Assembly: GCA_000004695.1 (NCBI GenBank)
Contig: CM000151.3
Span: 96,001 to 160,000, forward strand
DNA: 64,000 bases
Direction: 5' to 3'
Origin: Dictyostelium discoideum
Lineage: Eukaryota
Under the pieces are notes generated by a model. It had not been told where the DNA came from, ran no database searches, and saw only the letters and a program-made list of their open reading frames with translations. The stretch's first letter is position 1, and the number at the start of each line of letters is the position of its first letter. Of the stretch, positions 1-21,990 are shown in pieces. The translations under genes and the position numbers were made by a program.

Positions 1-272
1 TTCTTTTCTAAACCATTTGTCCATAATTATATCTTCACCATGATCTTTTATTATTTCATATGAAATGAGTGGGGAAATAAAAAAATACCATTCTTTTGAA
101 ACCAAACATAAATTTAAAATTTCATCTTGGTAACAATAAAATTCCAATTTTGAATAATAAAAATTTTTATTAATATATTTTTTATTTTTTGGAATTAATA
201 AATAATTTATTAATAATATTATTATATCTTTTTCAATTATTTTTGTTAATTTTTTATTCATTTTTTAAAATT
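1..272 (-). CDS. F-box/LRR-like family protein, N-terminal fragment cut by the window edge. This is a tandem copy of the 1475..3331 gene.
   Basis: 1..560 is nearly identical to 3060..3620. Minus-strand translation matches the N-terminus of the 618-aa ORF (MNKKLTKLIEKD...DEVLNLCLVSKEWYF). The gene body lies off-window. Confidence 0.45.
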
Positions 273-735
273 ATTCAAGTTTGGAAAATGTTTAATATTT
301 TAAAATTTCACTTGTTTTTTTACTTAATATATTTAATTGAAAAAATACTGTTTCTTAAAATAGATTTTAAATTGATTTTTTTAATTAATTTCAAAAAAAA
401 AAAAAAAAAAAAAAAAAACATTTTATAATTTAAAAAAAAACTATTGTAAATTAAAAAATAATAAAAAAAAATCAAATTTAAAAAATTTATTACAGATCTG
501 AATTTTATTGGAAATAAAAAAAACTGATGGGTTTTTATTTGAAATTAATTATTTTTATTATTTTTTATTTTTTTTTAAATTTTTATTCCAAATTATGTGT
601 ATCTTAAAAGAAAAAAAAGAAAAAAAATTTTGAGAAAAATTAAAATTTCCTTTTTAAGTTTTTTATCTATTGTGCACTCTTTTTTTAAAAAAATTGATAA
701 TTGGATATTATTTAATTTTAAATTATTTTTATAAT

Positions 736-770
<35 letters not shown>

Positions 771-1339
771 AAGGCAAGACAAGGGTAAAAAAAAAAAAAC
801 TTTAAGTTATAATTTGTAAGGGTGTAACATTCCCAATACAAGAAGTTAATTATTTATATATATCTATATAGGGGTTTTTATAGTATTATGTGCTATAGCA
901 TTTTAATTCTTATTTTCTAAAATTAATATTAATTATTTCTCTGAATAATTAATTCTTTTTAAATTAATTTCTCATTAATTTCTCATTAATTTTTTTTCAA
1001 TATTTTAAAACTATTTATACTAAAATCTATTAACCTCTTTGGTCTTATATTTGAAAAATCTTAAAAATTAAAATAAATAAAATAATTTAATTTAAATATA
1101 ATTAATTATTATATTATGGAAATGTTTAAACATTACATTTAATATAATTTTAATTAAATTAACCCATTTGAAATTTCAATAGAATAAACATTAATTAATA
1201 GAATATTTTAATGTTATAACAAGATATTTTTGACCTCTGGTTACAGTAGGTGTAAAAATTTCAGCATTAAAGTGGTGAAAAGTTATTATTATGCCTTTAA
1301 GAAACTGTAAAAGATATTGTTTGCTAAGGTTAAAAATTA

Positions 1340-1474
1340 AAAAATTATGCTCCTAGACACAAAGTAATTTATTATAATTTTATATATAATTATAATTTAA
1401 TATATATAATTATAATTTTATCAATTTAGATTTTAAAAATATATTTTTTTTTTTTCTATTTATTTGTTAAGCAA
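1340..1474 (-). repeat. 3' flank of the family gene containing an 18-bp tandem repeat (tatatataattataattt) present in 2 copies; the paralogous flank at 9105..9180 has 3 copies
   Basis: Direct comparison of 1375..1420 with 9110..9180. Confidence 0.5.
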
Positions 1475-3331
1475 TCAAGAAAATTCCTCTAAGGGTGGAT
1501 AATTTTTACCAAAATAAAAAGATACTAATGTTTTATTTTCACTTTTGTTATTGTTGATGGTAGCTTGAATTTGTTTTTTTAAATCTTGAATTTTATCTAT
1601 AATTTGTCTTTTATTTACTATACGATAATAATCATGATATGGAAAATCTAAAATCAATTCATTTATTGAGATTGAGTTTGGTGATTGAAATAATGAAATT
1701 ACATCATCATAATTATCAAATATATCTATTGGTAATTGAATTGAATAAAGTGTTGTATTTGGATACTTTTTCATACAATTTAAAATGAAAGAAATCCATT
1801 TAATATTTGAATATAAATCAGTTTTATCAACAGAAAATTTGATTCTTCTAATTGATGAATAATTATACATTATATTTAATGATGATGAAGATGATGATGA
1901 TGAGGATAATGAATCATTTTTAGAAAATATATCAGAAAATAAATATTCAATTATTGATGTAGAGAATGAAGGTCCTATTGAAAAATTATTTATAACTAAT
2001 GTTTTAATCGTTGAATTAAATAGTAAAGCTGAAAATGAATTTGGAGAAACACTACAATCAATATTTATTAATCTTAAAAATTTAATGGTTTTATTATTTT
2101 TAATAAGATTATAAAATCCATCTGATATACATTTGATTGTATTTTCATTTAATTCTAAATTTGAATATTCATAACATTTTATTGGGTCTAGAAAGTATTC
2201 GCATGGAAAATTTGAAATGGTTAGATTCACAATTGATGTATTATTAGAAAGTGTGACTATCAATTCATTCCATTCTTTGGAAATATTTTTTGAAAGATTA
2301 TCTCCATTAAAACATTGTTTAGTTATTTTACATCCATGATAATGTTTGTTTATTAAATGAAATGGTACCTGAATTGCAAGTGTTTTTAAAGTTGGACATC
2401 TTTTATTCAAAGATATCAAAGCACCTGGTTGTAATGTACTTGCATGTAATGAAGAAGGACAAGAATAAAGTTTTAAATGTTTTAATTGAGTTAGATCATT
2501 ATTAACTAAATGACTAAATTGTAAACCATCAATTTTTAATTCAATTACTTTATTAAAATTATCAAATTTACAAAAACAATATATAAATTGGAGACTGTAA
2601 AAATATTTATCAATAAACGAATTACATGGTAACTTTTTCCAAAACTTTAATTCTACACCTAAAGGTTTATTAAGACATGCAATTTCAGACAGTAATTGAC
2701 GATTTGGAATGGGTGGAAATGTGCATGTTGCTTCATATTTCATTTCATTTACACAAATGAAAGATACTCTTTTAAAATTGTTATATTTTTCTGTATCTGG
2801 ATAATTTTTACCATAACTTTTTATAATTATAATATTATTACTAAAAAAGTCTGAAATTATTTCTTTTTTAATTTTAATAATTGACCAATTTTTATTTATA
2901 ATTAATTTAAAAATTTTATTCAAACTTTGGCTTAAACTATATTTTGAAATTGACAATACTGATATATAAATTGGTTCGTTTTTTAAATATCTACTTGGCC
3001 CAATGCTTTCAATTGAATTATTTATGTTTGAAACATTTTTAAATTGTTCTATATATTGATTTTGATACAATTCTTTTCTAAACCATTTGTCCATAATTAT
3101 ATCTTCACCATGATCTTTTATTATTTCATATGAAATGAGTGGGGAAATTAAAAAATACCATTCTTTTGAAACCAAACATAAATTTAAAACTTCATCTTGG
3201 TAATAATATAATCCCAATTTTGAATAATAAAAATTTTTATTTACATATTTTTTATTTTTTGGAATTAAAAAATAATTTATTAATAAAATTATTATATCTT
3301 TTTCAATTAATTTTGTTAATTTTTTATTCAT
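1475..3331 (-). CDS. F-box-like/leucine-rich-repeat (RNI-like) family protein, the intact 618-aa copy of a locally repeated family
   Basis: Single uninterrupted ORF. N-terminal F-box-like motif (DEVLNLCLVSKEWYFLISPL). Central repeats of LxxLxL type (LKHLKLYSCPSSL..LKTLAIQV..). Poly-Ser tract. Fragments of the same sequence recur at 1..272, 4020..4238, 9065..9540 and 9541..10310. Confidence 0.6.
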   Translation of the reverse strand: MNKKLTKLIEKDIIILLINYFLIPKNKKYVNKNFYYSKLGLYYYQDEVLNLCLVSKEWYFLISPLISYEIIKDHGEDIIMDKWFRKELYQNQYIEQFKNVSNINNSIESIGPSRYLKNEPIYISVLSISKYSLSQSLNKIFKLIINKNWSIIKIKKEIISDFFSNNIIIIKSYGKNYPDTEKYNNFKRVSFICVNEMKYEATCTFPPIPNRQLLSEIACLNKPLGVELKFWKKLPCNSFIDKYFYSLQFIYCFCKFDNFNKVIELKIDGLQFSHLVNNDLTQLKHLKLYSCPSSLHASTLQPGALISLNKRCPTLKTLAIQVPFHLINKHYHGCKITKQCFNGDNLSKNISKEWNELIVTLSNNTSIVNLTISNFPCEYFLDPIKCYEYSNLELNENTIKCISDGFYNLIKNNKTIKFLRLINIDCSVSPNSFSALLFNSTIKTLVINNFSIGPSFSTSIIEYLFSDIFSKNDSLSSSSSSSSSLNIMYNYSSIRRIKFSVDKTDLYSNIKWISFILNCMKKYPNTTLYSIQLPIDIFDNYDDVISLFQSPNSISINELILDFPYHDYYRIVNKRQIIDKIQDLKKQIQATINNNKSENKTLVSFYFGKNYPPLEEFS

Positions 3332-3687
3332 TTTTTAAAATCATTCACCTATTGAATAAAAAAAAAAAAACTTTTAAAAATTTTAAAAAATTATAGTAAA
3401 TCACTCAAATAAAAAAAAACTAATAAAAAAAATCATTTAAGTTTATTATAGATCTGTAATATATTGGTATTAAAAAAATTAAAGGGTCTTTTTATTTGGA
3501 AGGAATTATTTTTTTTTTTTTTAATATATTCCAAAATTATCTATTTTTAAAGAAAAAAAAAAAAAAAAATTGATAAAAATAGAAATTTCCTTTCAACTTT
3601 ATCTATTATCTGCTCTTTATTTAAAAAATTGATAATTTTTAAATTTAAATTATTTTAGTAATAATATTTTTTTGTTTTTTTTTTTTT

Positions 3688-3718
<31 letters not shown>

Positions 3719-3745
3719 GTTTAAATTCGTTTTAATTTCTTTTTG

Positions 3746-3776
<31 letters not shown>

Positions 3777-3809
3777 TAAAAGAAAGAAAAGAAAAGAAAG
3801 AAAAGAAAG

Positions 3810-3840
<31 letters not shown>

Positions 3841-4019
3841 AAAAGAAATAAAAGAACAGAAAATAAAAGAAAAGAAAAAAAAACATGCTCAGAGCCTAAC
3901 TAAAAATAAATAAATAAATATACAAAAATAAAAAAGAATAATAAAAGAAAAATAGTAATAAAATTGCTTTTTTAAAATTTTTAATTTATTAAAAATAAAA
4001 TTTTTAAACTCTTTATTTA

Positions 4020-5000
4020 TTATTTTCTTCGATTAAATAAACAAATTGAATATATTTTCCTATTACAATTAAAATTATTAATCAAGAAAAGTGGATAATT
4101 TTTACCAAAATAAAAAGATACAAATGTTTTATTATCTTTTTTGTTATTGTTGTTGATGGTCGTTTGAATTTGTTTTTTTAAATCTTGAATTTTATCTATA
4201 ATTTGTCTTTGATTTGCTAGATCGAACCATTGCATCATATCAAAATTTTGCTCGGAATTGATAAAATTATTATGTGAACAGACACGAAATATGTTCGTTA
4301 TACAATTTAAAAAAATAATGCAGTTTCTACTATTATTATTATTATTATCATTACCAATGTTATTTAAATAACATAATAATCCTTTAAAAATATTATCATT
4401 TTTTGGAATTTCATCTAACCCGATTGATTTCTCACCAAAATCAGTGTTATTTAATGATGTTTCTAATGATGTTGATGATGGTGAGTTTGATTTTTTTAAT
4501 TCTAATAGATATTTGATGATTTTATTTGAACCTGTCTCGATTGAATTTAAAAGATCTGTTTTTGTTGGTAATTGAATTCATTTATAAATAATTTATAAAT
4601 TTCTAAATTCTTTGATTGTATTATTGCAGTTGATACATAAATTGGTGAAGAGTAATAATACCTTTGAATTTTGAAAAAGTTTCTATAAAATTTGAAATCA
4701 TTTTTAATTATTTCAAACAATTTCTTTAAATAAATTAAATCTTTACGCCAACTAGATTGATCAGACTCTTTACGCCAACAAGTTTCACCAAATTCTAAAT
4801 ATCTACAATTTCTATAAACTTTTTCTTTTAAAATACTAATTTGATTTGAATCTATTAGTTTAGTTATTGACGATACTGAATCGTAACTAAATGAATATTG
4901 GTTATACATAAATGAGAATATCTTTTTATAAATTGCTTTATTTCTAAACAATTTCCAAAATAATATTTCAATTGGTTCTATATTATCTGTAATTGTTTAT
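4020..5000 (-). pseudogene. Degenerate short paralog of the family. It has a Y-type F-box-like N-terminus (ORF 4547..4951), then a frame switch into the family C-terminal tail (ORF 4020..4238, RQIIDKIQDLKKQIQ..VSFYFGKNYP).
   Basis: Two ORFs lie in different frames, joined by continuous homology. There is an in-frame TAA at 4997..4999 and an 11-nt deletion near 5140 relative to the copy at 10860. The C-terminal tail closely matches residues 560-618 of the 1475..3331 protein. Confidence 0.45.
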
Positions 5001-5360
5001 TTTATGATTTTATTGAATGAATTAGTATTTTCTTTTCGTTCATGTTCTTCTTCATATTCTCTTTTTCTTTTTTTTACAATTTTAATCCTTTCAATTATTT
5101 CTTGTTTATTTAAGTGATTTATTTCTATACAATATTTCTTTAATTGATTTTAAATTCTTTTTCTCTAATTCACAATTATTATCATTATCTTTATCATCTT
5201 ATTAATTAAAGATGATAAAAATATATAAATTATTTTTCATTGTTGTGGTGGTGGGGGAAATTAAAAAATAAAAAAAAAAAAATATAAAAAAATATAAAAA
5301 AAAAAAAATAAAATAAAACAAATAAAAAACATTTTTATGGTGTAACGGATTTTATTTAGT

Positions 5361-5391
<31 letters not shown>

Positions 5392-5456
5392 TTTTTTTTT
5401 TTTACTATTTCTTTGAAATTTCGTTGAATATTATTTTTAAACGAATTCTAATGACT

Positions 5457-5580
5457 ACATAACCCCTGTAAGCGGTTAGCAGCCCCTTGTAATCCTTACA
5501 ACCAGTGTAGCCCACAAATCCGGCTATTCGTCTTACAGTTCCTATTAGCCGCTTACAGGGTTACTTAGTCATTTTGCGCG
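5457..5580. other. GC-rich palindromic element in AT-rich spacer. Its inverted-repeat arms are 5461-5475 and 5549-5562. It contains CCTTACAACCA (5494-5504) and CCCACAA (5511-5517). The paralogous, internally deleted version is at 11207..11275.
   Basis: Read directly. Arm 1 is aaccc(c)tgtaagcgg. Arm 2 is ccgcttacagggtt, the reverse complement with one bulge. The element is flanked by >90% AT sequence. Confidence 0.3.
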
Positions 5581-6029
5581 TTGGCGGTGTAATTAATATT
5601 TATTTATATTTTTATTATTCGCTGGAAAAAATTCATTATTTTATTAGATATTTTATGATACGTAATTTCTCATATATCTAATAAAATATTGAATTTTCTA
5701 AAATTTTTTTTTCCAGCGAATAATAAAAAAAAAAAAACTGTTTTGGTTAACCATGGGGTGATTTATTGTAATTTTTTAATAATTTTAGTTCTGTTTTTTT
5801 TTTTTAAATGGAGATATCAGAGAGATTATTATGATATTTTGAATAATTGGATCATAGTAATAAACAATATTTTTAATTTTTTTCTTTTTTTTTTTCTTTT
5901 CATTCTTTTTTTTTTTCTTTTCATTCTTTTTTTTTTAGTACTTAATCTTTATTTTTTTCATCTTTCAAAATAAAAAAAAATATTTATATAAATTTTAACT
6001 TTAAATTAAATAAATAAATAAATTTTAGA

Positions 6030-6452
6030 ATGACTGAAGAAGTGCATAAATTGAAAATTACAATATTTACTGATAAAGGGAGATCAACAATAAGTGGTGG
6101 AGGTAAGTTAATTAGAATTATTAATTTATAAATATTTAATTTTGGTTTATATATTAAAAAATGTAACATTTAATTTCATTCTTCTGGCTTTTTTAAAAAT
6201 ATAGATTTTCCTCTACCTGTATTACCTTATCCTGCACCATATACTTTTAGATTATTTGATTACGAAATTGAAGGCCCAAATTTAACCAATAAAGAATTTA
6301 AAGTAAAAACAGGTAAAATTGAATACAAAGGAGAAGAATTTGATATTCCTTCATCATCTAAGGGCTCATGGAGAGGAGTAGATGAAGAAATGGATTTAAT
6401 CTATGTTACAATATATCCAAGTAGACAACCAAAAAAAGTTTTTCATTATTAG
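6030..6452 (+). CDS. Small conserved hypothetical protein (106 aa), paralog 1. Exons 6030..6102 and 6205..6452.
   Basis: ATG, then GTAAGT donor at 6103, acceptor ...aaaatatag at 6204 in phase 1, stop TAG 6450-6452. Protein: MTEEVHKLKITIFTDKGRSTISGGG/DFPLPVLPYPAPYTFRLFDYEIEGPNLTNKEFKVKTGKIEYKGEEFDIPSSSKGSWRGVDEEMDLIYVTIYPSRQPKKVFHY. An identical exon/intron structure is at 11780..12202. Confidence 0.5.
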
Positions 6453-6762
6453 ATCTTAAAAACAGATCTGAAACAATTAAAACAAAAATAAAAAATTTTA
6501 AAATTTTATATAAAAAAATAATTATGATTAAAAAAAAAATATGTGTGGAAAAAAAAAAAAATTAAAAATTAAAAATATATTTGTTTATGGTGTTATGTTT
6601 TTTGGTAAGGTTTAAAGTGATCAAAAAATTATCATTCAAACTTGTAAAAAAACAATAATAATAAATAATAATTTAAAAACAAAATAAAGATTAATTTGCA
6701 TTATCCAATTTTTTTTTTTTTTTTTTTTTTTTTGATTTTGTTTAATTTGATTCGATTCTATT

Positions 6763-6792
6763 TGATTTGATTTGATTTGATTTGATTTGATT

Positions 6793-6796
<4 letters not shown>
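6763..6796. repeat. (GATTTG)n hexanucleotide microsatellite flanked by long poly(T); the paralogous array is at 12815..12852
   Basis: Direct reading. The ORFs 6758..6976(-) and 12810..13013(-) are translations of this repeat plus poly(A). Confidence 0.7.
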
Positions 6797-6844
<48 letters not shown>

Positions 6845-8157
6845 CATTATAATCTTTTTTCCAATTATTTCCATTATATATAAATATATTGGAAAATCTT
6901 CCATTTTCCATTTTCCGCCATAATATGGATTTTTTTTTTCAGGAAATTGGCCAACACTATTGTATACTATATTCATAACAATCTGGAAGGTTGATGGCTA
7001 TATCAAGAGGATCATCAGAAGTCCATGGGAAGGGAATTTATTGGTTTCGGAAACATCATATGGATGAATGATACATTTGAAATTTAAAACATTATTATTA
7101 ATTGAGGCATTTTTATTAGATCGAGTTAAAATTTTATTGTGGAATTTTCATAATTAATGTGGAATTTTCCACTTTTTTTTTTTTTTTTAGAAATTTTTCA
7201 CCCCTACCCCTTTTCAATTTTATTTGAAAAATAGAATGTTGATATTTGATTTGATAATTTTCAAATTATTTATTAGTAATTGTAATTAATTGAAATAGAA
7301 ACCTTATTTTATTTTATTTTTTTTAAATATAATTACTGATAGTTTTGTACTGTAATTGGTAACTCTTTATTATTGTTTTGAAAAATGGATTATTAATACG
7401 ATTCAATTCTTCTTAATACTTATTATGACCTTTAATTTTAATTTCTTTAAAAAATATGTTTCTTGATTTTTGTTCTTGTTTTGTTGAAATATTATTTATT
7501 AAATTTTTAAATTCTTTAATAAATTCATCAACTAATTCCTTATCATTATATAATGTAAAAAAAAAAAAAAAACTCTGTTTATGACAACAAAACAGTCACA
7601 ATTTTTTTAACTATAAAACAAAAATTATTATCTTATTTTAAATTTTTACTTTATTTTTTTTCCATGCGGGTTCAAAAAAAAAGCTTTTTTTTTTTTTTTT
7701 TTTTTTAGTAAACAAAATTTTTTTTTTTTTTTTTTTTTTTTTTCGCACCCCTTCATTTACTTATTTTTCTTGTTGATATCATTAAAATCAATAGTTTTTT
7801 TCAAAATGTCAAAAAGAATTATTAATTTCAATTGGTTCATATAGATTGGGAAATTAATGAATCATTTAATAAAGACAATTATTAACTTTATTTATTTTAA
7901 ATTGTAGATATATTCTCAAATCCAAAAACAGGTATGGGTCATTCAAATGATGCTCTTTCACTTTTTATAAAAGCTTAAAGAGAGATTGGTTATTATCCAA
8001 ATATTGATAAAGCAATTTTCACAACTCCAGTCACAACTTTAGCTAAAACCACTATTGATTTAACTGCCCATGTTATAACTATATTAATGTGGTGTTGAGA
8101 TCATTACAAACTATGAAGTATTTCTAGGAAAGAGATGAAGGTACTAACAAGATCTTA

Positions 8158-9064
8158 CTTTTCAAAAAGTTGATTTAACATTGACTCTTTAATAAATTGA
8201 ACATCTTCATTTGTTTCAAATAAGACAAGATCAAAAAATACTACTTTAATAACATTATTGGGATCCAAATATTTACCAACGTGGCATTTTTTTAAATCTT
8301 GGGTGATGAAATTTCATTTTAGAGAGTTTATCGATTGTATTGGTTACTAAAGCAATAAAATCTTGATTTTTCCAATCATTGTGAGAAGCTGGTGATACAT
8401 ATGGCATCATTAAAGCTGGCTTGGAGTTCCAAGTTCCAACCTATTATAAATATATATATTAATAATTGTTTTGATTTATACCACCATTTTTAACTTTGAA
8501 ATAAAAATTACCATAAATACTTACATGTGCACCCAAACCCCAAAGTTCTCTCCACTTTTCACACTCTTTGATCAATTCGTTTTCTGGTTTAATATTACAT
8601 TTTGAGAATTTTAATACGAAAACATGTCCTTCCAAAATACCAAAAAAGACACAACATAACCATACTCTTCCATGTTCTCCTCCTTTTAAATCATATAATA
8701 AAACACATGCCTTAACTAATTTCAATGGGGTATCTATAAAATAATGTAATTTTTTGATATTAATGTTGACCCAAAACCATGAAGATTGAACTACTTGTAT
8801 ATACATTCTTTTTACATCAAGTAAAGGAATTTCTGATTTTCTTCTAGAGTAATACATCTTCATCAATACAGAGTATAAAACTTTTGGTAATTGTTGATCT
8901 GAATATTTAAAAACCTTTGAGCCATATAAAATACGTTTACAGTGAGTTGGTGGTATAATATCATTATAATCGTTCGTTATTGTGGAATTTTGTAAATTTG
9001 AGGTTGATGTTAAAGTATCTGGTTTCTGAAGAGTTGTAGTAGTTGATTCATTTGATAATTCCAA
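8158..9064 (-). pseudogene. Copy A of a duplicated unknown-family gene, the 'Z' family. It is 5'-truncated at the junction with the inserted family-gene fragment at ~9078 and carries a 1-nt insertion.
   Basis: ORF 8459..9064 is homologous to 15380..16010. The donor GTAAGT after ..GLGAH is near 8508. The next exon (VGTWNSKPALMMPYVSPAS..) loses frame at caccCaag near 8312, relative to copy B. Confidence 0.5.
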
Positions 9065-9540
9065 TTTGGGAGCTTGAGCAGACTATGCTCCTAGACACAA
9101 AGTAATTTATTATAGTTTTATATATAATTATAATTTTATATATATAATTATAATTTTATATATATAATTATAATTTTATCAATTTAGATATTAAAAATAT
9201 ATTTTTTTTTTTTCTATTTATTTGTTAAGCAATCAAGAAAATTCCTCTAAGGGTGGATAATTTTTACCAAAATAAAAAGATACTAATGTTTTATTTTCAC
9301 TTTTGTTATTGTTGATGGTAGCTTGAATTTGTTTTTTTAAATCTTGAATTTTATCTATAATTTGTCTTTTATTTACTATGCGATAATAATCATGATATGG
9401 AAAATCTAAAATCAATTCATTTATTTAAATTGAGTTTGGTGATTGAAATAATGAAATTACATCATCATAATTATCAAATATATCTATTGGTAATTGAATT
9501 GAATAAAGTGTTGTATTTGGATACTTTTTCATACAATTTA
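9065..9540 (-). pseudogene. C-terminal ~100 codons plus 3' flank of an F-box/LRR-like family copy (corresponds to 1340..1800)
   Basis: ORF 9233..9415 is identical in sequence to the C-terminus of the 618-aa protein. The flank carries three copies of the 18-bp repeat. Confidence 0.55.
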
Positions 9541-10310
9541 AAATGAATGAAATGAAATATGAAGCAACATGCACATTTCACCCCATTCCAAATCGTCAAT
9601 TACTGTCTGAAATTGCATGTCTTAATAAACCTTTAGGTGTAGAATTAAAGTTTTGGAAAAAGTTACCATGTAATTCGTTTATTGATAAATATTTTTACAG
9701 TCTCCAATTTATATATTGTTTTTGTAAATTTGATAATTTTAATAAAGTAATTGAATTAAAAATTGATGGTTTACAATTTAGTCATTTAGTTAATAATGAT
9801 CTAACTCAATTAAAACATTTAAAACTTTATTCTTGTCCTTCTTCATTACATGCAAGTACATTACAACCAGGTGCTTTGATATCTTTGAATAAAAGATGTC
9901 CAACTTTAAAAACACTTGCAATTCAGGTACCATTTCATTTAATAAACAAACATTATCATGGATGTAAAATAACTAAACAATGTTTTAATGGAGATAATCT
10001 TTCAAAAAATATTTCCAAAGAATGGAATGAATTGATAGTCACACTTTCTAATAATACATCAATTGTGAATCTAACCATTTCAAATTTTCCATGCGAATAT
10101 TTTCTAGACCCAATAAAATGTTATCAATATTCAAATTTAGAATTTAATGAAAATACAATCAAATGTATATCAGATGGATTTTATAATCTTATTAAAAATA
10201 ATAAATCCATAAAATTTTTAAGATTAATAAATATTGATTGTAGTGTTTCTCCAAATTCATTTTCAGCTTTACTATTTAATTCAACGATTAAAACATTAGT
10301 TATAAATAAT
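9541..10310 (+). pseudogene. Internal segment of the same family gene in inverted orientation (corresponds to the reverse complement of ~1985..2760), fused head-to-head to the 9065..9540 fragment
   Basis: ORF 9543..10385(+) translates to MNEMKYEATCTF..., which is residues ~190-450 of the 1475..3331 protein but on the opposite strand. The junction at 9540 reads aaaatgaatgaaatgaaatatg. Confidence 0.55.
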
Positions 10311-10716
10311 TTTCTAAATTCTTTGATTGTATTATTGCAGTTGATACATAAATTGGTGAAGAGTAATAATACCTTTGAATTTTGAAAAAGTTTCTATAAA
10401 ATTTGAAATCATTTTTAATTATTTCAAATAATTTCTTTAAATAAATTAAAATTAAATCTTTACGCCAACTAGATTGATCAGACTCTTTACGCCAACAAGT
10501 TTCACCAAATTCTAAATATCTACAATTTCTATAAACTTTTTCTTTTAAAATACTAATTTGATTTGAATCTATTAGTTTAGTTATTGACGATACTGAATCG
10601 TAACTAAATGAATATTGGTTATACATAAATGAGAATATCTTTTTATAAATTGCTTTATTTCTAAACAATTTCCAAAATAATATTTCGATTGGTTCTATAT
10701 TATCTGTAATTGTTTA
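10311..10716 (-). pseudogene. Copy B of the Y-type F-box-like fragment; carries the same in-frame TAA (10714..10716) as copy A
   Basis: ORF 10300..10668 is ~97% identical to 4547..4951. The TAA shared by both copies places the nonsense mutation before the duplication. Confidence 0.45.
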
Positions 10717-11090
10717 TTTTATGATTTTATTGAATGAATTAGTATTTTCTTTTCGTTCATGTTCTTCTTCATATTCTCTTTTTCTTTTTTTTACAATTTT
10801 AATCCTTTCAATTATTTCTTGTTTATTTAAGTGATTTATTTCTATACAATATGATTTTGCAATTTCTTTAATTGATTTTAAATTCTTTTTCTCTAATTCA
10901 CAATTATTATCATTATCTTTATCATCTTATTAATTAAAGATGATAAAAATAATTTAAATATATAAATTATTTTTCATTGTTGTGGTGGTGGGGGAAATTA
11001 AAAAATAAAAAAAAAAAAAAAAATATAAAAAAAAAAATAAAAAAAAAAAAACAAATAAAAAACATTTTTGTTGTGTAACGGATTTTATTT

Positions 11091-11137
<47 letters not shown>

Positions 11138-11779
11138 TTTTTACTATTTTATTAAATATTTATTTCTTTGTTTGAATATTATTTTTAAACGAATTCAAAT
11201 GACTACATAACCCCTGTAGCCCACAAATCCGGCTATTCGTCTTACAGGGCCTATTAGCCGCTTACAGGGGTTGTGTAATTAATATTTATTTATATTTTTA
11301 TTATGGGCTAATTCTTTTTTTATTATTTAATGATAATTTATATTAAAATATGATATATTATTAATTAATATTTAATATTAATTTGTTAAATATTTTATTA
11401 AATTATAATCTCTTTATAAAAAGTGAGAAATTACTGTCATAAAATATCTAATAAAAAAATAAATTTTCTAAAAATTTTTTTTCCAGCGAATAATAAAAAA
11501 AAAAAAACTATTTTGGTTAACCATGGGGTGATTTATTGTAATTTTTTAATAATTTTAGTTCTGTTTTTTTTTTTTAAATAGAGATATCAGAGATTATTAT
11601 GATATTTTGAATAATTGGATCATAGTAATAAACAATATTTTTAATTTTTTTCTTTTTTTTTTTTCTTTTCATTCTTTTTTTTTTAGTACTTAATCTTTAT
11701 TTTTTTCATCTTTCAAAATAAAAAAAAAATATTTATATAAATTTTAACTTTAAATTAAAATAAATAAATAAATTTTAAA

Positions 11780-12202
11780 ATGACTGAAAAAATGCATGAA
11801 TTGAAAATTACAATATTTACTGATAAAGGGAGATCAACAATAAGTGGTATAGGTAAGTTAATTAGAATTATTAATTTATAAATATTTAATTTTGGTTTTT
11901 TTATTAAAAAATGTAACATTTAATTTCATTCTTCTGGCTTTTTTAAAAATATAGATTTTCCTCTACCTGTATTACCTTATCCTGCTCCATATACTTTTAG
12001 ATTATATGGATACAAAATTGAAGGCCCAAATTTAACCAATAAAGAATTTAAAGTAAAAACAGGTAAAATTGAATACAAAGGAGAAGAATTTGATATTCCT
12101 CCATCATCTAAGGGCTCATGGAGAGGAGTAGATGAAGAAATGGATTTAACCTATGTTACAATATATCCAAGTAGACAACCAAAAAAAGTTTTTCATTATT
12201 AG
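11780..12202 (+). CDS. Small conserved hypothetical protein (106 aa), paralog 2. Exons 11780..11852 and 11955..12202.
   Basis: Same structure as 6030..6452. Protein: MTEKMHELKITIFTDKGRSTISGIG/DFPLPVLPYPAPYTFRLYGYKIEGPNLTNKEFKVKTGKIEYKGEEFDIPPSSKGSWRGVDEEMDLTYVTIYPSRQPKKVFHY. Confidence 0.5.
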
Positions 12203-12409
12203 ATCTTAAAAACAGATCTGAAACAATTAAAACAAAAATAAAAAATTTTAAAATTTTTTCATAATTGAATTGATATAAAAAAATAATTATTATTAAAAAA
12301 AAAATATGTGTGGAAAAAAAAAAAATTAAAAATAAAAAATATATTTGTTTATGGTGTTATGTTTTTTGGTAAGGTTTAAAGTGATCAAAAAATTATCATT
12401 CAAACTTGT

Positions 12410-12625
12410 ATACCAGTGTTCGACCTTTTTCCACTTTTGGAAAAAAAGGGTGTTTTTTTTAATTTCCCTTCCATTCCATGTTTTTTTTAAAAACTTCCAT
12501 ATTAATATAATATTTTTTCCATTTTTTTTTTTTCAATTAACCAGGGAAGGCCGAAATTTTTTTTTTTATTTTTTTTTTGTAATATCTTAATAAACGTTTA
12601 TTAATTAAAAAAAAAAAAAAAAAAA
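12410..12625 (+). mobile_element. ~215-bp insertion present only in duplication copy B. It ends in AATAAA followed by a 23-nt poly(A), which is the signature of a retroposed (SINE- or processed-transcript-like) insert.
   Basis: Copy A at 6625..6640 (caaacttgtaaaaaaacaataataat) is uninterrupted. Copy B reads caaacttgtat|accagtgttcgacc...aataaacgtttattaatt(a)23|gtaaaatgataaataat...caataataat. Confidence 0.3.
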
Positions 12626-12727
12626 AAAGTAAAATGATAAATAATATTAATAAAAAAACAATAATAATAAATAATAATTTAAAAACAAAATAAAGATTAA
12701 TTTGCATTATCCAATTTTATTTATTTA

Positions 12728-12776
<49 letters not shown>

Positions 12777-12858
12777 ATTTTGTTTAATTTGATTCGATTC
12801 TATTTTATTTTATTTGATTTGATTTGATTTGATTTGATTTGATTTGATTTGATTTTTT

Positions 12859-12899
<41 letters not shown>

Positions 12900-15096
12900 C
12901 ATTATAATCTTTTTTCCAATTATTTCCATTATATATAAATATATTGGAAAATCTTCCATTTTCCATTTTCCACCATAATTTGGATTTTTTTTTTTCCGGA
13001 AATTGGCCAACACTATTGTATACTATATTCATAACAATCTGGAAGGTTGATGGCTATATCAAGAGGATCATCAGAAGTCCATGGGAAGGGAATTTATTGG
13101 TTTCAGAAACATCATATGGATGAATGATACATTTGAAATTTAAAATATTATTATTAATTGAGGCATTTTTATTAGATTGAGTAAAAATTTTATTGTGGAA
13201 TTTTCATAATTAAAATTATTTTTTTTTTTTTTTTTAGAAATTTTTCACCTTTACATTTTCCCTATTTTTTCTTTTTTTCACCCCTGCCCCTTTTCAATTA
13301 AAAAAAAATAGTGAAAAAAAAAGTAAATTAATAAATTATAAAAAAACAAATAAAAATAAATAAATTATATTATTAATTTTATTTGAAAAATAGAATGTTG
13401 ATATTTGGTTTGATAATTTTCAAATTATTTATTAGTAATTGTAATAAATTGAAATAGAAACCTTGATTAAGAGGTACCTCATTTTATTTTATTTTTTTTA
13501 AATATAATTACTGATAGTTTTGTACTGTAATTGGTAACTCTTTATTATTGTTTTGAAAAATGGATTATTAATATGATTCTTCTAAATACTTATTATGACC
13601 TTTAATTTTAATTTCTTTAAAAAATATGTTTCTTGATTTTTGTTCTTGTTTTGTTGAAATATTATTTATTAAATTTTTAAATTCTTTAATAAATTCATCA
13701 ACTAATTCCTTGTCATAATATAATGTAAAAAAAAAAAAAAAAAAAAACTCTGTTTCTGACAACAAAACAGTCACAATTTTTTTAACTAAAAAACAAAAAT
13801 TATTATCTTATTTTAAATTTTTATTTTATTTTTTTTCTGTGTGGGTGCAAAAAAAAGCTTTTTTTTTTTTTTTTTTTTTTTTTTTGGTAAAACAAAATTT
13901 TTTTTTTTTTTTTTTTTTTTTCGCACCCCTTCATTTACTTATTTTTCTTGTTGATATCATTAAAATCAATAGTTTTTTTCAAAATGTCAAAAAGAATTAT
14001 TAATTTCAATTGGTTCATATAGATTGGGAAATTAATGAATCATTTAATAAAGACAATTATTATTAACTTTATTTATTTTAAATTGTAGATATATTCTCAA
14101 ATCCAAAAACAGGTATGGGTCATTCAAATGATGCTCTTTCACTTTTTATAAAAGCTTAAAGAGAGATTGGTTATTATCCAAATATTGATAAAGCAATTTT
14201 CACAACTACAGTCACAACTTTAGCTAAAACCACTATTGATTTAATATTCAATGAAAACAGTTGGAATCAAAATAAATCAAAACCAATTTCAATTTATAAT
14301 TTAAATGGTAATTCAATTGAATTGAAATTATTTTATAGTGTATTAGAAAACAGTTTTAAATGTAATGAAATCCAATTCGATGAATGGATTGAATTAGTTA
14401 CAAAATCAAATGGAAAATCTTCAAAAAGATATTCAACATTCCACATTCTCAATAATCAAAATTAATGAATCAATCATTTTAAATAATATTAATAATAACA
14501 ATAACTAAAATAATAAAAAATAAAAAATATCATAATCAATAGTTGGCAAACGTACACTATTAACCAATGCTTAAGTACCAGGTTGTGTTGAAAATGATCC
14601 CAAAGAATATATACCTATCACCTTGGTTTGTAATTGGAAATGAATAATCTGTATATTCTCAAATAAACAATTAATGGTGTCGTACTATCAACTGGTTTCA
14701 AATACAATACCACATTACAATCTTGTTCAGAAAGATATTATTATTTTTATATATTTTTTAAATGTTATAAATTAATTTTTCTTTGAAAAAAAAAAAAAAC
14801 AAAACAAAATAAAAAGTACTTTTTTTTTTAAATTTAATCAAATTAATGGAAAATGTCCAAACCAAATTACAAGAATTTAAAACAAATTAATAAACTATTT
14901 TTATTTGTATAATGAATTTGAAAGTTGATTTTATTTTATTTTATCATTTGATAGATGATATTTTGGTGAATAATAATGAAAATTGTGATCCAACTTTTTA
15001 ACTGCCCATGTTATAACTATATTAATGTTGTGTTGAGATCATTACAAACTATGAAGTATTTCTAGGAAAGAGATGAAGGTACTAACAAGATCTTAC

Positions 15097-16972
15097 TTTT
15101 CAAAAAGTTGATTTAACATTGACTCTTTAATAAATTGAACATCTTCATTTGTTTCAAATAAAACAAGATCAAAAAATACTACTTAATAACATTATTGGAA
15201 TCCAAATATTTAGCAACGTGACATTTTTTTAAATCTTGGTGATGAAATTTCATTTTAGAGAGTTTATCGATTGTATTGGTTACTAAAGCAATAAAATCTT
15301 GATTTTTCCAATCTTTGTCAGAAGCTGGTGACACATATGGCATCATTAAAGCTGGCTTGGAGTTCCAAGTTCCAACCTATTATAAATAGATATTAATAAT
15401 AGTTTTGATTAATACCATTTTTAACTTTGAAATAAAAAAATAACCATAAATACTTACATGTGCATCCAAACCCCAAAGTTCTCTCCACTTTTCACACTCT
15501 TTGATCAATTCATTTTCTGGTGAAATATTACATCTTGAGAATTTTAAAACGAAAACATGTCCTTCTAAAACACCAGCGGAGGCACAACATAACCATACTC
15601 TTCCATGTGCTCCTCCTTTTAAATCATATAATAAAACACATGCCTTAACTAATTTCAATGGGGTATCGATAAAATAAAGTAATTTTTTGATTTTAATGTT
15701 AACCCAAAACCATGAAGATTGAACTACTTGTATATACATTCTTTTTCCATCAAGTAAAGGGATTTCTGATTTTCTTTTAGAGTAATACATCTTAATCAAT
15801 ACAGAGTATAAAACTTTTGGTAATTGTTGATCTGAATATTTATAAACCTTAGAGCCATATAAAATACGTTTATAGGGAGTTGGTGGTAAAATATCATCAT
15901 TATCGTTCGTTTTTGTGGAATCTTGTAAATTTGAGGTTGATGTTTAAGTATCTGGTTTCTGAAGAGTGGTAGTAGATTCATTTGTTAATCCCAATTTGGA
16001 AGCTTGGGCAGATCCATCTGAAATAGGTAACCAACATACCCTCCAGCTCTCATATGTTGTTGAAATACCATAAACATCTTCCTGACCATACATTTCAGCG
16101 ATACTTAACACGTAATTCAACGTTTGGCCATGAAGCTTATCATTCTCCATAATGTTTTTACTTGGCTTTTTAACTTCAATAATACCTATAGGTAACCCAA
16201 TTGAATTTGCAAGTACCATAATATCAGGTTTCAAATCACTAACACCAAAATAGCTTGAACAATATGCATTTATACCACATGATTTGATAATGTCATTAAC
16301 TGCGGTTCTAACATAAAAAGCAATGTCGGATTCTGTGGAGTAATGGAGGTAGCTTCCGTTTCCAAGAGACCCCCATAATAAATTGTGGCATGGAATTGGT
16401 TTTATGTCTGCTAAAATTTCAAAACTTTTCGATACCAAAGTTGCAGGTTGATGATTTTTCCCAACAGATGGATTTGACATTGAGCCTGACTTCTCACCCA
16501 AAGGAGGTAAAGCATTAGCAAAAATATCCTTCTTTGGTTCTGTATTATGTAAATTGTATATTAATTAGTTAAAAAGTTTTAAAAATTAATTTATTATGAT
16601 TTAACCTACCATACAAAATATTCTTCTTTGGTTCTGTATTATGTAAATTGTATAATTAATCAGTTAAAAAGTTTTAAAAATTAATTTATTAATTATGATT
16701 TTAAAAGGGATAAACCTACCATATAAAACATAAATATGAGTTGGAATATTGTTTTCATTTAATTTGGTTTCGATATCCAATTCTTTTTCCCCCAATCCAT
16801 CACCTACTGGTTGTTTATCGAAGATTGATAAATCTTTTGTTTTATATTGTACTCCATTATCGCTAATATATTCTGCTATTATTTTTAAAACATCATATAT
16901 TCTGTTAACTGACTCAAATTTAATTTCATCTTTTTTATTATTTAAATAAACAATACAACTAAAAGAAACCAT
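15097..16972 (-). pseudogene. Copy B of the Z-family gene. It is full-length at the 5' end (exon 1 is ORF 16664..16972) but has a premature TAA and a 1-nt deletion.
   Basis: Codon TTA in copy A (..LQKPDTLTST, ~9040) is TAA in copy B at 15941..15943, splitting ORFs 15944..16501 and 15380..15799. The downstream exon reads ..NNVIK then TAG, owing to a missing A relative to copy A at ~8290. Introns carry GTAGGT/GTAAGT donors. Confidence 0.5.
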
Positions 16973-17470: not shown

Positions 17471-17811
17471 TTTTTTTTTTATTTTATTTATTTACAATAG
17501 TTTATTTTTGTTGATCGATTTGTTATATTATTGTCCATTTTATTGAATTTAAAAAGTGTACATTTGTGGTCTTGTGAAGATATTGTTGTAACGATGATCA
17601 GCAGCTTGAACAGAATTTAATGATTCTGAATTATTAAAAGAATTGTTATTATTTGAAATAGAGTTTTTATTTAATTTTGGTGAGTTTAAAATTTGATATA
17701 ATGATTCTATTATTAATAAAAAAAAATAAAAATCAATTAATATTTTCATTAAAAACTAAAATTTTTAAATTGTTGTGTGTGTTTTTTTTTTATAAAATAC
17801 ATACTAAATAA

Positions 17812-17868
<57 letters not shown>

Positions 17869-18620
17869 TTAATTAATACTTGAAGTTAAAAAATAAAAGG
17901 AAATGAATTTAATTTTTATAATTTTTTGAAGTTTACAAAATATTTTTTATAGTTTTATTAATTCTTTTTTTAATTTTGATGTTATTGTTATTGTATTTGA
18001 TTGAATATAAAATATTTTTTTTTTTTTTCAACAACTATTTAAGTAAGTAAATCCTTACTTGTGAAATTGAATTTAATAAATACCTTTTTGTATAAATAAA
18101 GGTAATTTGTAATTTAATGTTGACAACATTGTTAAATTACAAAATTTAAAAATAATTTAATTAAAATTAATTATTATTTTTTAAAATGTTCCCACACCCT
18201 GTCACAATCACACAAGTACATCGTATGATTTAAAACAAGTAAAAAATTATATAATTAGATTATTACTCAGTTGGATTTATGATGTAAATTTAAAACATAG
18301 AGTATATATATATCATGTATATTCGTAATAGAAGACAAGTAACAGTATTTTTATTGATATTTTTTAGTTTTCTTCAAAATAATTATTTCATTTTTTTTTT
18401 TTTTTTTTTTTTTTATTAAATCCAAAGAAAATTAAAACTTGGTATTTAAAAAAACTCTCGTTGATTAAAATAAAATCAATTCAAATTTAATATATTAAAT
18501 CAACTATATTTCAGTTTTTATTTAATTTTATTATTAAGTATAATAATAATAATAATAAAAATAAATAAAAAATAATTTAAAAAATAAAAAAAATAAAAAA
18601 TTAATTAAAAAGGATTTAAT

Positions 18621-18720
18621 TTTTATTTTTATTTTTATCTTTGTTTTTATTTTATTTTTATTTTTATTTTTATTTTTATTTTTATTTTTATTTTTATTTT
18701 TATTTTTATTTTTATTTTTA
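18621..18720. repeat. (TTTTTA)n hexanucleotide microsatellite, ~16 units; a shorter array is at 20575..20612
   Basis: Direct reading. Confidence 0.7.
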
Positions 18721-18949
18721 CTCTTATTTTATTACTTTTTTATTACTTTTTTTATTTTATTTTTTTTTTATATTTAAGGTTTTTAATTTTTATTATTTTT
18801 ACATTTTTTTGTAATGAGACCTTAATTTTAAAATGTATAGTTTTTTTTAAGTCAAAAGATTTAAATATTATGAAAATATTAAGCTCCACAAATCAATTAA
18901 AAAAATTATACTAATTTAAAAAATTATTCGGTTTTTTTGTTTTTTTTTC

Positions 18950-18985
<36 letters not shown>

Positions 18986-18999
18986 CTCCCAAACTAAAC

Positions 19000-20100
19000 A
19001 TGATAATAAATCAGCAAATTAAATTATTAAATATTTTAAAATTTTATGGTCAAAAAAAAAGTTTAGATATTTTAAATAATGTCTCAAATAAAATAAAACC
19101 ATTTATTAGTGATAAACGTTTAAAGAGATTTGAAGATTCAATTAATAATAGAAATAAAAGGTAGATTATTTTTTTTTTTTGATTTTCTATTTTTTTTTTT
19201 CTTTTTTTTTTCTTTTTACGTTAAAAAAAAATTTAAAAATTTAAAAATAATAAAATTAAATGAATTATTTAAATTATAAATATTTAAATATTTAAATAAA
19301 ATAAAAAAAAAAAAAAAAAAAAAAATAGATTTATTATAGTTTGTGAGAATTTAGATAATCCTGGTAATTTCGCAGCGGTTGTTAGATCAGCAGATGCTAT
19401 TGGTATTCAAAATTTATGTTTAATTAATGAAGGTGGTAATTTAGATTCAAATTTTGAAAAATATGATAGAGTTAGTTTAGGTTCAGGTAAATGGGTAACA
19501 GTTAATAAATACTATTCAACAACTAAATGTATAGAGAAATTAAAAGAACAAGGTTATTCAATATGGGCATCAGATTTATCTGCAACTGCATTCCAGTTTG
19601 ATCAACTTATTTTTCAACCAAATAAACTCACTCCTCAATTATCTTATTTTTTATCAGAATCAATTAAAAATGTAAATTCTTTAAATAATAATAATCAAGA
19701 AGAAGAAGAATTAATTAAAAATTTAGCTATAAATGAATTGTATAATAATAATAATAAAATTGTAAATAATAATAATAATAAAAATTTCATAAGAAATGAT
19801 GAAAAGATTGCACTAGTATTTGGTAATGAATCTAATGGTATTTCAGAATTAATGAGATCATTATCAGATAGAAGGTTTTATTTACCAATGGTTGGATTTG
19901 TAGAATCTTTTAATATTAGTGTTAGTGTTGCAATGACTTTATCTTTCTTAAAAATGCAAGGAGTAATAACTCCTGATCTATCACCATTGGATAAAATAAA
20001 ACTATTAAATAAATTTGTTTTATCCTCTATACCAAAGAATAAACTGGTTTTAGAAAAACTTGGTTTTGATAGTGATTTAATTTTAAAGTTAATAAAATAA
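19000..20100 (+). CDS. SpoU/TrmH-family RNA 2'-O-ribose methyltransferase (SPOUT superfamily), 310 aa. Exons 19000..19160 and 19329..20100.
   Basis: Exon 1 ends ..RLKRFEDSINNRNK(R) with donor GTAGAT at 19161 in phase 2. Exon 2 begins FIIVCENLDNPGNFAAVVRSADAIGIQ, the TrmH N-terminal motif. SPOUT motifs ALVFGNESNGISELM and LPMVGFVESFNISVSVAMTL are present. Confidence 0.6.
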
Positions 20101-20404
20101 TAATAATAAATTAATAAAAAAAAAAGTTAAAAATGATAAAAAAAAAAAAGATAAAAAAAAGTTAAAAAATGAAAAAGATAAAAAAAAAAAAAACCAACAT
20201 TAATGTAAAAAAAAAATAAAAAAAAAAGGTAAACAATAATTAAAGTAACTTAAAAATAATTTTTTATTAATTTTTTTTTTTTAATTAAATAAAAAATAAC
20301 ATTGGTTTTTTTTATTTTTATTTTTTTTTTTTTGAAAATATATATAGATTTACAAATGGGTTCAAAATAAAAATAAAAATGGGGAACAACAATCAAAGTT
20401 GATT

Positions 20405-20436
<32 letters not shown>

Positions 20437-21037
20437 ATTGCCCTTTGGGGTTTATCTCTTTTTATCTAAATATAGGTTCACCTTGTTGTTTATAAAAAAA
20501 ATTTATAAAAGAGAAGATAACAATTTTATTTTATTTTTTTTTTTTTTTAAAACAATTATTGTTATTACTTTTTTTATTTTATTTTTATTTTTATTTTTAT
20601 TTTTATTAATTATTTTTATTTTATTTTTTTTTTAAAATATTTTTTTATTATTTAAATATATTAAATGTTGGAATTTGATTAATAATGACGATAATTTAAA
20701 ATAAGATTTTATCGAGATATAATATTTTCATAAATCCCCATATAATTTTTTTAACAATTTTATTTTATATATTATTGGGATCATCAATTCTTTAAAAGAA
20801 TATACATAAAAAGAAAATTAAAAAAAAAAAAAAAAAAAAAAATGAAAACAAATTAAAAATATTTTTTTTTTTTTTTTTAAAAAAAAACAAATAAATCACC
20901 CCAACAGATAAAAACAAAACAAAAAAAAATAAAAAACAAAACAAAAAAAACACACTCCCATATTTACATGCATACATTAATAATTATAATCACTTTGTTA
21001 ATGTATTGTTTTTTTTTTTTTTTTTTGAAGTGTGTAC

Positions 21038-21068
<31 letters not shown>

Positions 21069-21704
21069 CAAATTCATTATACAACCACAATTACCACAAT
21101 ATATATTTATTTTTATTTTTATTTTTATTTTTTGGTTGTATATTTTTTAATATTATTATTAATATTAATAAACATTTTTTTTTAATTTATTTATTTTTTT
21201 TTTTTAAAAAAAAAAAAGTACTCATTATCTTTTTTTTTTGAAAAGTTTTATTCCTTTTTTATTTTTTTTGTTTCTTTTATTTTATTTTTTCTTTTTTGTT
21301 TTTTATACTAATAATAAATAATTATTTATTATTTCAATTTTTATTTGTATATATATACCACACACACACATTTTAAATCATAAAATTTTTAATCTATTAT
21401 AGTTTTTAATCTTAAAAAATCATACCAAAAATTTAAAAAAAGAAACAATAATAATAAAGAATAATAAAAAAAATAAAAGAATAATAAAAAAATAAAACCA
21501 AAAGAAATAATAAATAAAACAGAAAACAGAAAAAAAAAAAAAAATAAAGAATAAAAAGTAATTTTTTTTTTTTTTTTTTTATTTTTTTTTTTTTTTCTTC
21601 TTTTATTATTAATTTATAAACTCCAATTGGAAAATAATAAATTATTAATTATTTTTTTTTTTTTTTCCAGAAAGAATAAAAAAAAAAAATAAAAATAAAA
21701 TAAA

Positions 21705-21990
21705 ATGGATAGATTATTAAATTGTCCAAATTGTTTGAAAGTTTTTAATAATCCAAGACAGTTAGAATGTGATCATATATTATGTACAAGATGTATTGAA
21801 GGAGTTTATAATCCAGGTAGAACACCAATAATAAAATGTCCAGTTTGTGATAAACATTCAATAGTTATAACATCAATTGATAAATCATTTCCATTGATTC
21901 ACTGTATTGAAGAGTTATTAACTTATAAATATAAAGATTGTAACTATGATGATAGCCTTTCAATTCCATTAAATAATAGTACTGGTAGTA

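Follow-up and report, generated by a model that had tools for sequence, protein, structure and literature searches.

How two broken copies of one gene came to lie next to each other on chromosome 2 of Dictyostelium discoideum AX4, and whether both had ever been complete, is the question raised by a stretch of 64,000 nt of that chromosome (here called the window; coordinates are positions in it unless another locus is named). A preliminary description of the window had reported two collinear blocks, here the left block A and the right block B, holding copies of a gene abbreviated Z. Here, Z was identified as a DUF5898 gene, and the locus was compared with those of two strains labelled D. discoideum (L001 and L002), with loci of D. 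cf. discoideum (L003-L005) and with the corresponding locus of the assembly GCA_054883475.1 (L006). We propose that one partial tandem duplication, with a junction templated by the nearby gene X, probably gave rise to a copy of Z in block A (Z_A) that was truncated at birth, the copy in block B (Z_B) being the parental gene. The case is genuine, but as an instance of a gene duplicated and then decaying it is ordinary, and it leaves the understanding of gene birth and death unchanged.

Two adjacent copies of one block and the junction between them

The features that define the duplication and its junction are the following:

4596..9082: block copy A, 4.5 kb (self-BLAST, global alignment)
9083..10313: junction insertion, 1.2 kb between the blocks, two X-derived pieces (self-BLAST, junction inspection)
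10306..16012: block copy B, 5.7 kb, continuing unbroken into the unique 5' part of Z (self-BLAST, global alignment)
1349..3331, minus strand: gene X with its 3' flank, 618-aa open reading frame at 1475-3331, template of the junction insertion
4020..5198, minus strand: gene S copy A (S_A), of which 4020-4595 lies outside the duplication
10306..10926, minus strand: gene S copy B (S_B), 3' end cut by the duplication breakpoint
High-scoring segment pairs, A/B (self-BLAST): 4595-5470/10306-11218; 5674-6646/11444-12410; 6709-7202/12751-13249; 7216-8063/13375-14244; 8059-9082/14997-16012

Alignment of the window with itself, a check that the preliminary description had proposed, gave these five collinear segment pairs on the same strand between A 4595-9082 and B 10306-16012, with 93.5-94.1% identity including gaps and E = 0 throughout. 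This similarity is far above chance, the low G+C content of the window (~20%, with long homopolymer runs) notwithstanding, and A and B are a tandem segmental duplication, i.e., adjacent, collinear and direct copies. Global alignment placed the limits of homology at A 4596 / B 10306 and A 9082 / B 16012. The blocks had been described as spanning 4240..9078 and 10310..16020: their collinearity as direct repeats stands, while the left limit of A had been set ~350 nt too far to the left, as nothing in B matches A 4240-4595. The two blocks differ in length due to stretches found in B only, the largest of which, B 14245-14996 (752 bp), is also present in L002 and therefore represents a deletion in A; two more B stretches of ~340 and ~125 bp are missing from A. 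Scans of the window for tRNAs and against Rfam returned no match, and thus neither a signature of a tRNA-targeted retroelement nor a known RNA gene in the block.

The two blocks are separated by DNA that had been taken for an unrelated fragment inserted at 9078, and which turned out to derive from gene X, ~7.7 kb to the left. Homology of A stops at 9082/9083, where a 2-nt filler (CT), a direct X piece, the motif AAATGAA, an inverted X piece and block B follow in this order. The direct piece (9085-9553) is a copy of 1349-1795, comprising the 3' end and flank of X, with 98% identity, and the inverted piece (9546-10313) is a copy of X 1982-2749 with 99% identity. Among the three junctions, the two X pieces overlap at the 7-nt microhomology AAATGAA, the inverted piece meets block B at the microhomology TTATAAATAATTT of up to 13 nt, and the third carries the 2-nt filler; the host DNA is 80% A+T, and in such DNA microhomology arises readily by chance. 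For a dictyostelid, the junction provides a clean example, at the level of the sequence, of a complex duplication whose fillers were templated in both direct and inverted orientation.

The two genes at the junction are each cut on the side facing it: Z_A is without its 5' end (codons 1-260) and S_B is without its 3' end, as would be expected if 4596-9082 had undergone a partial tandem duplication. It had been stated that copy A lost its 5' exons; since A ends exactly at the duplication breakpoint and S_B is truncated in mirror image, Z_A probably never had them.

As to further features of the block and of gene X, A 4732-5031 and B 10449-10748 are 100% identical over 300 nt (1 mismatch in ~400 nt), with the block elsewhere ~2% diverged, which may reflect recent gene conversion between the copies. 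Window positions 1-277 repeat the 5' end of X (3071-3347) with 96% identity, and a further X copy probably lies just beyond the left edge of the window. In L002, two X genes are arranged head to head (17598-21738 of that locus); the structure of the X region differs from strain to strain.

The DUF5898 gene Z and its lesions

The two copies of Z and the annotated models over Z_B are located as follows:

15093..16972, minus strand: Z copy B, DUF5898 gene and probable parent, pseudogene; exons 16972-16720, 16633-16610 (micro-exon), 16539-15458 and 15376-15093
8155..9082, minus strand: Z copy A, only codons ~261-539; intron 8524-8441; ancestral stop 8157-8155
17107-15944, minus strand: DDB_G0271368, part of Z_B in the AX4 annotation
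15790-15179, minus strand: DDB_G0271366, part of Z_B in the AX4 annotation

The start codon of Z_B lies at 16972, the 24-nt micro-exon is flanked on either side by a short intron, and an 81-nt intron precedes the last exon; this last intron is kept in both copies (A 8524-8441, B 15457-15377). The reconciled product of 539 aa matched the Pfam family DUF5898 (PF19250) over profile positions 1-109 of 109 with 137.5 bits (cut-off 28.9; E = 2e-40), a family that belongs to the protein-kinase (PKinase) clan (PMC9758233). In an alignment of 15 homologues, residues E155, D191, E207 and K209 are invariant and constitute a PD-(D/E)xK motif, and K418, E433, H492 and D494, invariant or nearly so, occupy kinase-like catalytic positions. 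Accordingly, the N-terminal half of Z carries E...D...ExK on the fold characteristic of PD-(D/E)xK restriction endonucleases, and the DUF5898 part has a protein-kinase-like fold with Lys, Glu and HxD. Because both sets of invariant residues are present together with the full-length DUF5898 match, ancestral Z is a fusion of a nuclease-like domain with a minimal kinase-like domain following it. The full-length domain match and the invariant nuclease-like (E, D, ExK) and kinase-like (K, E, HxD) residues are shared with DUF5898 proteins such as DLAC_05650 of Tieghemostelium lacteum; in AX4, by contrast, the gene is in pieces, and no intact member was found in the proteome in two protein searches, which returned only three fragments and were not exhaustive, the first having missed two of them. 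Within the window, tblastn with the reconstructed Z protein recovered copies A and B only.

The three fragments are annotated in AX4 as the hypothetical genes DDB_G0271368, DDB_G0271366 and DDB_G0271324, all of which match the window exactly. The last is a chimeric model over Z_A, its first exon (~9373-9284) being taken from the X fragment. For the annotation, the value of the present analysis lies in recognizing these genes as pieces of one dead gene and of its partial duplicate. Our literature search found no paper on any of the three, and DUF5898 only in a list of kinase-clan families. With regard to the gene models, the 2-nt filler next to block A supplies the splice acceptor AG of DDB_G0271324, and a tandem duplication of ~100 nt in intron 1 of Z_B creates the in-frame micro-exon 16633-16610 (EPKKNILY), which is used in the AX4 gene model.

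That the two copies are broken in different ways was borne out by the alignment of seven sequences, namely the two copies and five related loci (L001-L005). The nonsense mutation reported in Z_B (TTA to TAA) is real and lies at 15946-15944, with the substitution at 15945, 3 nt away from the position given for it (15941..15943). The site reads TTA in copy A, L001 and L002 and has the sense codons ATT or ATA in the D. cf. discoideum loci. Likewise, the 1-nt deletion described near 15170 was placed at 15184-15183 (AAA to AA, a -1 frameshift) and is followed by a premature TAG at 15181-15179, and the 1-nt insertion described in Z_A at ~8312 was placed at 8303-8301 (CC to CCC, a +1 frameshift); in addition, everything upstream of codon ~261 is missing from Z_A. 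Each of these small lesions is unique to one copy, the other copy and the five related loci being unbroken at the site, and each is therefore derived. The claim that one ancestral reading frame can be rebuilt held as well: the reconciled C-terminus matches the intact orthologue P0001 (540 aa) and the gene model P0002. With introns kept and lesions absent from the orthologues, Z_A and Z_B are, as judged by their sequence, non-processed (duplicated) pseudogenes.

The search for an intact Z elsewhere, which had also been suggested, led to the divergent strain L001, whose Z protein P0001 is the sole fully intact one among the seven copies examined. AX4, the laboratory reference strain, thus appears to be without an intact DUF5898 member, whereas a wild relative has kept one. 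In L002, a frameshifting deletion of 155 nt has removed the nuclease core, a loss that the gene model disguises as an intron; in L003, 1 nt is deleted close to the 3' end, and L004 and L005 have several stops and frameshifts. Altogether, at least five of the seven Z copies are broken.

In L005, a DDE_Tnp_4 transposase gene is situated ~2.5 kb away from the broken Z (14216-15471 of that locus), whose genomic context is unlike that of the AX4 locus; Z copies were relocated in the D. cf. discoideum lineage of L005.

Origin of the duplication and alternative readings

The order of events rests in part on a remnant of a polyketide-synthase gene carried by both blocks:

14067..14483, plus strand: polyketide-synthase remnant, copy B, last ~140 codons, the remainder being absent from the window
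7886..8062, plus strand: polyketide-synthase remnant, copy A, shortened by the 752-bp deletion

We propose that, in the AX4 lineage, the polyketide-synthase gene would have been truncated before the duplication, after which a single replication or repair accident would have duplicated 4596-9082 in tandem, with one breakpoint inside Z at about codon 260 and the other inside gene S. The new junction would have been patched with the two X pieces from ~7.7 kb away, one direct and one inverted, at short microhomologies, presumably by template switching of the microhomology-mediated break-induced replication/fork stalling and template switching (MMBIR/FoSTeS) type. Copy A would never have been a complete gene, and parental B would have been broken later by the stop codon and the frameshift. 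The point of truncation of the polyketide-synthase gene is identical in A and B, and both L001 and L002 keep its body (3099 aa in L001, 11676-21430 of that locus; a 1175-aa model in L002) downstream of a single Z, which is located between a SpoU-methylase gene and the polyketide-synthase gene; therefore, the duplication postdates the split from L001 and L002. Moreover, A and B differ by substitutions at 1.6-2.3% of sites over most of the block, and this divergence of ~2%, as compared to 3.5-4% between the AX4 flanks and those of L001 and L002, fits a duplication within the AX4 lineage. An old duplication with reciprocal loss in the other strains was considered and rejected on account of the same shared truncation and of the gene body retained by the single Z of L001 and L002. 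No polyketide-synthase match was found beside Z in L003-L005, and the adjacency of the two genes can therefore not be called ancestral beyond L001 and L002.

The B lineage accumulated 11 nonsynonymous and 14 synonymous changes which, with ~3.9 nonsynonymous sites per synonymous site, amounts to a ratio of nonsynonymous to synonymous rates (dN/dS) of ~0.2; constraint on the parental gene therefore lasted until a short time ago, and B died recently. The private changes since the duplication (nonsynonymous/synonymous) are 15/6 in A and 8/5 in B, numbers too small for significance, and the L001 branch carries 13 nonsynonymous and 13 synonymous changes.

The locus resembles known partial tandem duplications that yield a pseudogene truncated at birth in its direct adjacent copies, the introns kept, the breakpoint gene cut on the junction side and the later frameshifts. 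It differs from them in the 1.2-kb templated insertion of two pieces at the junction and in the different genealogy of one duplicate segment. With MMBIR/FoSTeS, which has been described mainly in human and yeast, it shares a junction made of short templated segments from nearby DNA, both direct and inverted, with microhomologies of 2-13 nt; here, however, the mechanism is read from sequence alone, in a dictyostelid with DNA of 80% A+T.

Several observations weigh against so simple an account. The main exon of Z is 6.25% diverged over the 560 gap-free sites common to A and B, i.e., ~3-3.5 times as diverged as the rest of the block (p = 7e-8), and in the main exon of A (9082-8525), 9 substitutions and a 3-nt insertion recur in L001. 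This pattern is not what a plain copy of B that later decayed would show; it would call for later gene conversion or for a duplication that joined two diverged haplotypes. Furthermore, microhomology is weak evidence in DNA of 80% A+T, no intermediate haplotype was seen, and the same arrangement may have come from a larger duplication whose junction was later altered by a deletion and an insertion.

The main-exon pattern would be accounted for by the reading that this part of A stems from a second old haplogroup of Z, the one represented by L001, having entered either by unequal exchange between two diverged chromosomes or by conversion, with an allele of this kind or a paralogue that was not seen as the donor. 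This reading is compatible with the partial tandem duplication proposed above, and we regard it as a serious candidate, although falling somewhat short of an even chance. In its favor, the main exon holds all of the states shared with L001, its conflicting sites follow the pattern (A,L001)(B,L002) in 9 cases and the third possible pattern in none, and neighbor-joining grouped A with L001 (bootstrap 85%) and B with L002 (83%) in the main exon as compared to A with B (100%) in the last exon. The ~100-nt duplication that created the micro-exon is likewise derived and common to B and L002, being absent in L001 and in the D. cf. discoideum copies. Additionally, the divergence between L001 and L002 rises from ~0.3% in the distant flank to 3-4% immediately upstream of Z and to 4-8% inside the gene. 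On the other hand, A and L001 are still 7% apart with many private changes each, which makes any shared history old and its support moderate; the informative sites number just 560, no donor sequence was identified, and faster neutral decay of A together with one clustered 5-nt change adds to the excess divergence. Taken together, two old Z haplogroups appear to exist, and the main exon of A appears to carry traces of the second. The island of deep divergence between L001 and L002 is local, extending from ~2 kb upstream of Z through the gene.

Relaxed selection was rejected as the sole cause of the excess divergence of A: the counts are too small for significance and the states shared with L001 would be left unexplained. 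The preliminary description had the duplication followed by independent decay of both copies; the tandem duplication and the independent, derived lesions are confirmed, while decay does not account for the whole of the A/B divergence, given that the main exon groups with L001. More generally, such uneven divergence along one block warns against dating duplicates by the divergence of a single gene. A bolder extension, which we consider improbable, is that Z evolves fast, persists as two old haplogroups in the D. discoideum complex, possibly under selection of a balancing or conflict type, and is repeatedly lost, with A as a fossil that recombination captured from the second haplogroup. The contrast between 0.3% in the distant flank and 4-8% in Z for L001 and L002, and the predominance of broken copies beside one intact copy, fit this extension, in which Z may be likened to a recognition or defence gene or to a selfish element.

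Concerning the truncation of Z_A, the model given in the preliminary description was that a larger unit with a complete Z was duplicated, that A later lost its 5' exons to a foreign insertion at 9078-10310 and that both copies decayed independently. The independent small lesions are indeed real, and the X pieces, which differ from their source at 13 of 1195 sites (1.1%), are slightly less diverged than the rest of block A is from B (62 of 3293 sites, 1.9%), which could mean that they arrived later. However, this difference is not significant (p = 0.086) and is partly expected since X is constrained; statistically, the divergence of the filler agrees with an age equal to that of the duplication. 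The model moreover requires an extra deletion that removed exactly the 5' part of Z_A and the 3' part of S_B, in addition to the two-piece insertion, whereas truncation of both junction genes is the default of a partial tandem duplication. We consider the model unlikely.

A slimmer chance still is given to the reading that the fragments are working genes, i.e., a nuclease-only gene DDB_G0271368, a kinase-like-only gene DDB_G0271366 and a junction-spanning chimera DDB_G0271324. All three are annotated as protein-coding models with exact matches in the window, and the TAA of Z_B falls in a low-confidence linker (predicted local distance difference test, pLDDT, < 50; model residues 283-307), a 305-aa product retaining the whole nuclease-like domain with its invariant residues. 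Against this, DDB_G0271366 begins at an internal Met, is without its own promoter and stops at the frameshift, and DDB_G0271324 ends in frameshifted sequence and has a first exon that is a guess; the broken copies in L002 (with the 155-nt deletion), L004 and L005 imply that the family is dispensable. Rescue of the TAA by splicing was rejected: all 68 frame-preserving GT..AG spans over it are 62-70% A+T and 114-591 nt long, unlike the real Z introns of 84-86% A+T and 70-86 nt, and the proposal that transcripts might remove the lesions as overlooked introns is thus unlikely to hold for the TAA.

Finally, that the duplication or the lesions are errors of the reference, which would have undone the preliminary description and is conceivable in error-prone A+T-rich homopolymer DNA with two of the three lesions in short homopolymer runs, is very unlikely and largely refuted, because L006, assembled independently from a near-identical strain, is 99.7% identical to window 1-16495 (2 single-nucleotide polymorphisms and 10 gaps, the gaps nearly all in homopolymer runs) and thus reproduces the whole 16.5 kb with the same architecture and all three small lesions.

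Other genes and elements in the blocks

The blocks had been described as holding remnants of Z; these are present, together with two intact csb-family genes, the pseudogene S and the polyketide-synthase 3' remnant. The csb-family (Dicty_CAD) genes are:

6030..6452, plus strand: copy A, intact, DDB_G0271326, 106 aa, exons 6030-6102 and 6205-6452
11780..12202, plus strand: copy B, intact, DDB_G0271320, 106 aa, exons 11780-11852 and 11955-12202

Their products matched PF05720 (Dicty_CAD) with E = 1.2e-23 and are identical to UniProt Q55BG7 and Q55BG3, where they are already catalogued as paralogues, and here they are passengers in the duplication. Literature searches covering the csb family and structural variation among isolates of D. 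discoideum brought up nothing relevant to this locus. The pair differs at 9 amino acids and 1 synonymous site, and the 102-nt introns differ at 3 sites. Either an absence of purifying selection or diversifying selection would agree with these changes, which are too few to tell the two apart. Older AX4 models of 119 and 204 aa joined a csb exon to the polyketide-synthase remnant by splicing.

The copies of gene S share an in-frame TAA, and S_A additionally has an 11-nt deletion and, as read from frame translations, an apparent further frameshift near 4560; S_A is probably a pseudogene. Its C-terminus resembles that of X.

Furthermore, a palindromic element that is comparatively G+C-rich (~34%) is present at A 5455-5600 and B 11205-11285, with the arms ACCCCTGTAAGCGG / CCGCTTACAGGG. 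The element had no Rfam match, and the window contains no further occurrence of its arm motif. B is without ~64 nt of it, and fold prediction gave z-scores of -3.4 for A and -5.4 for B. Its motif CCCACAA resembles the Dictyostelium upstream sequence element.

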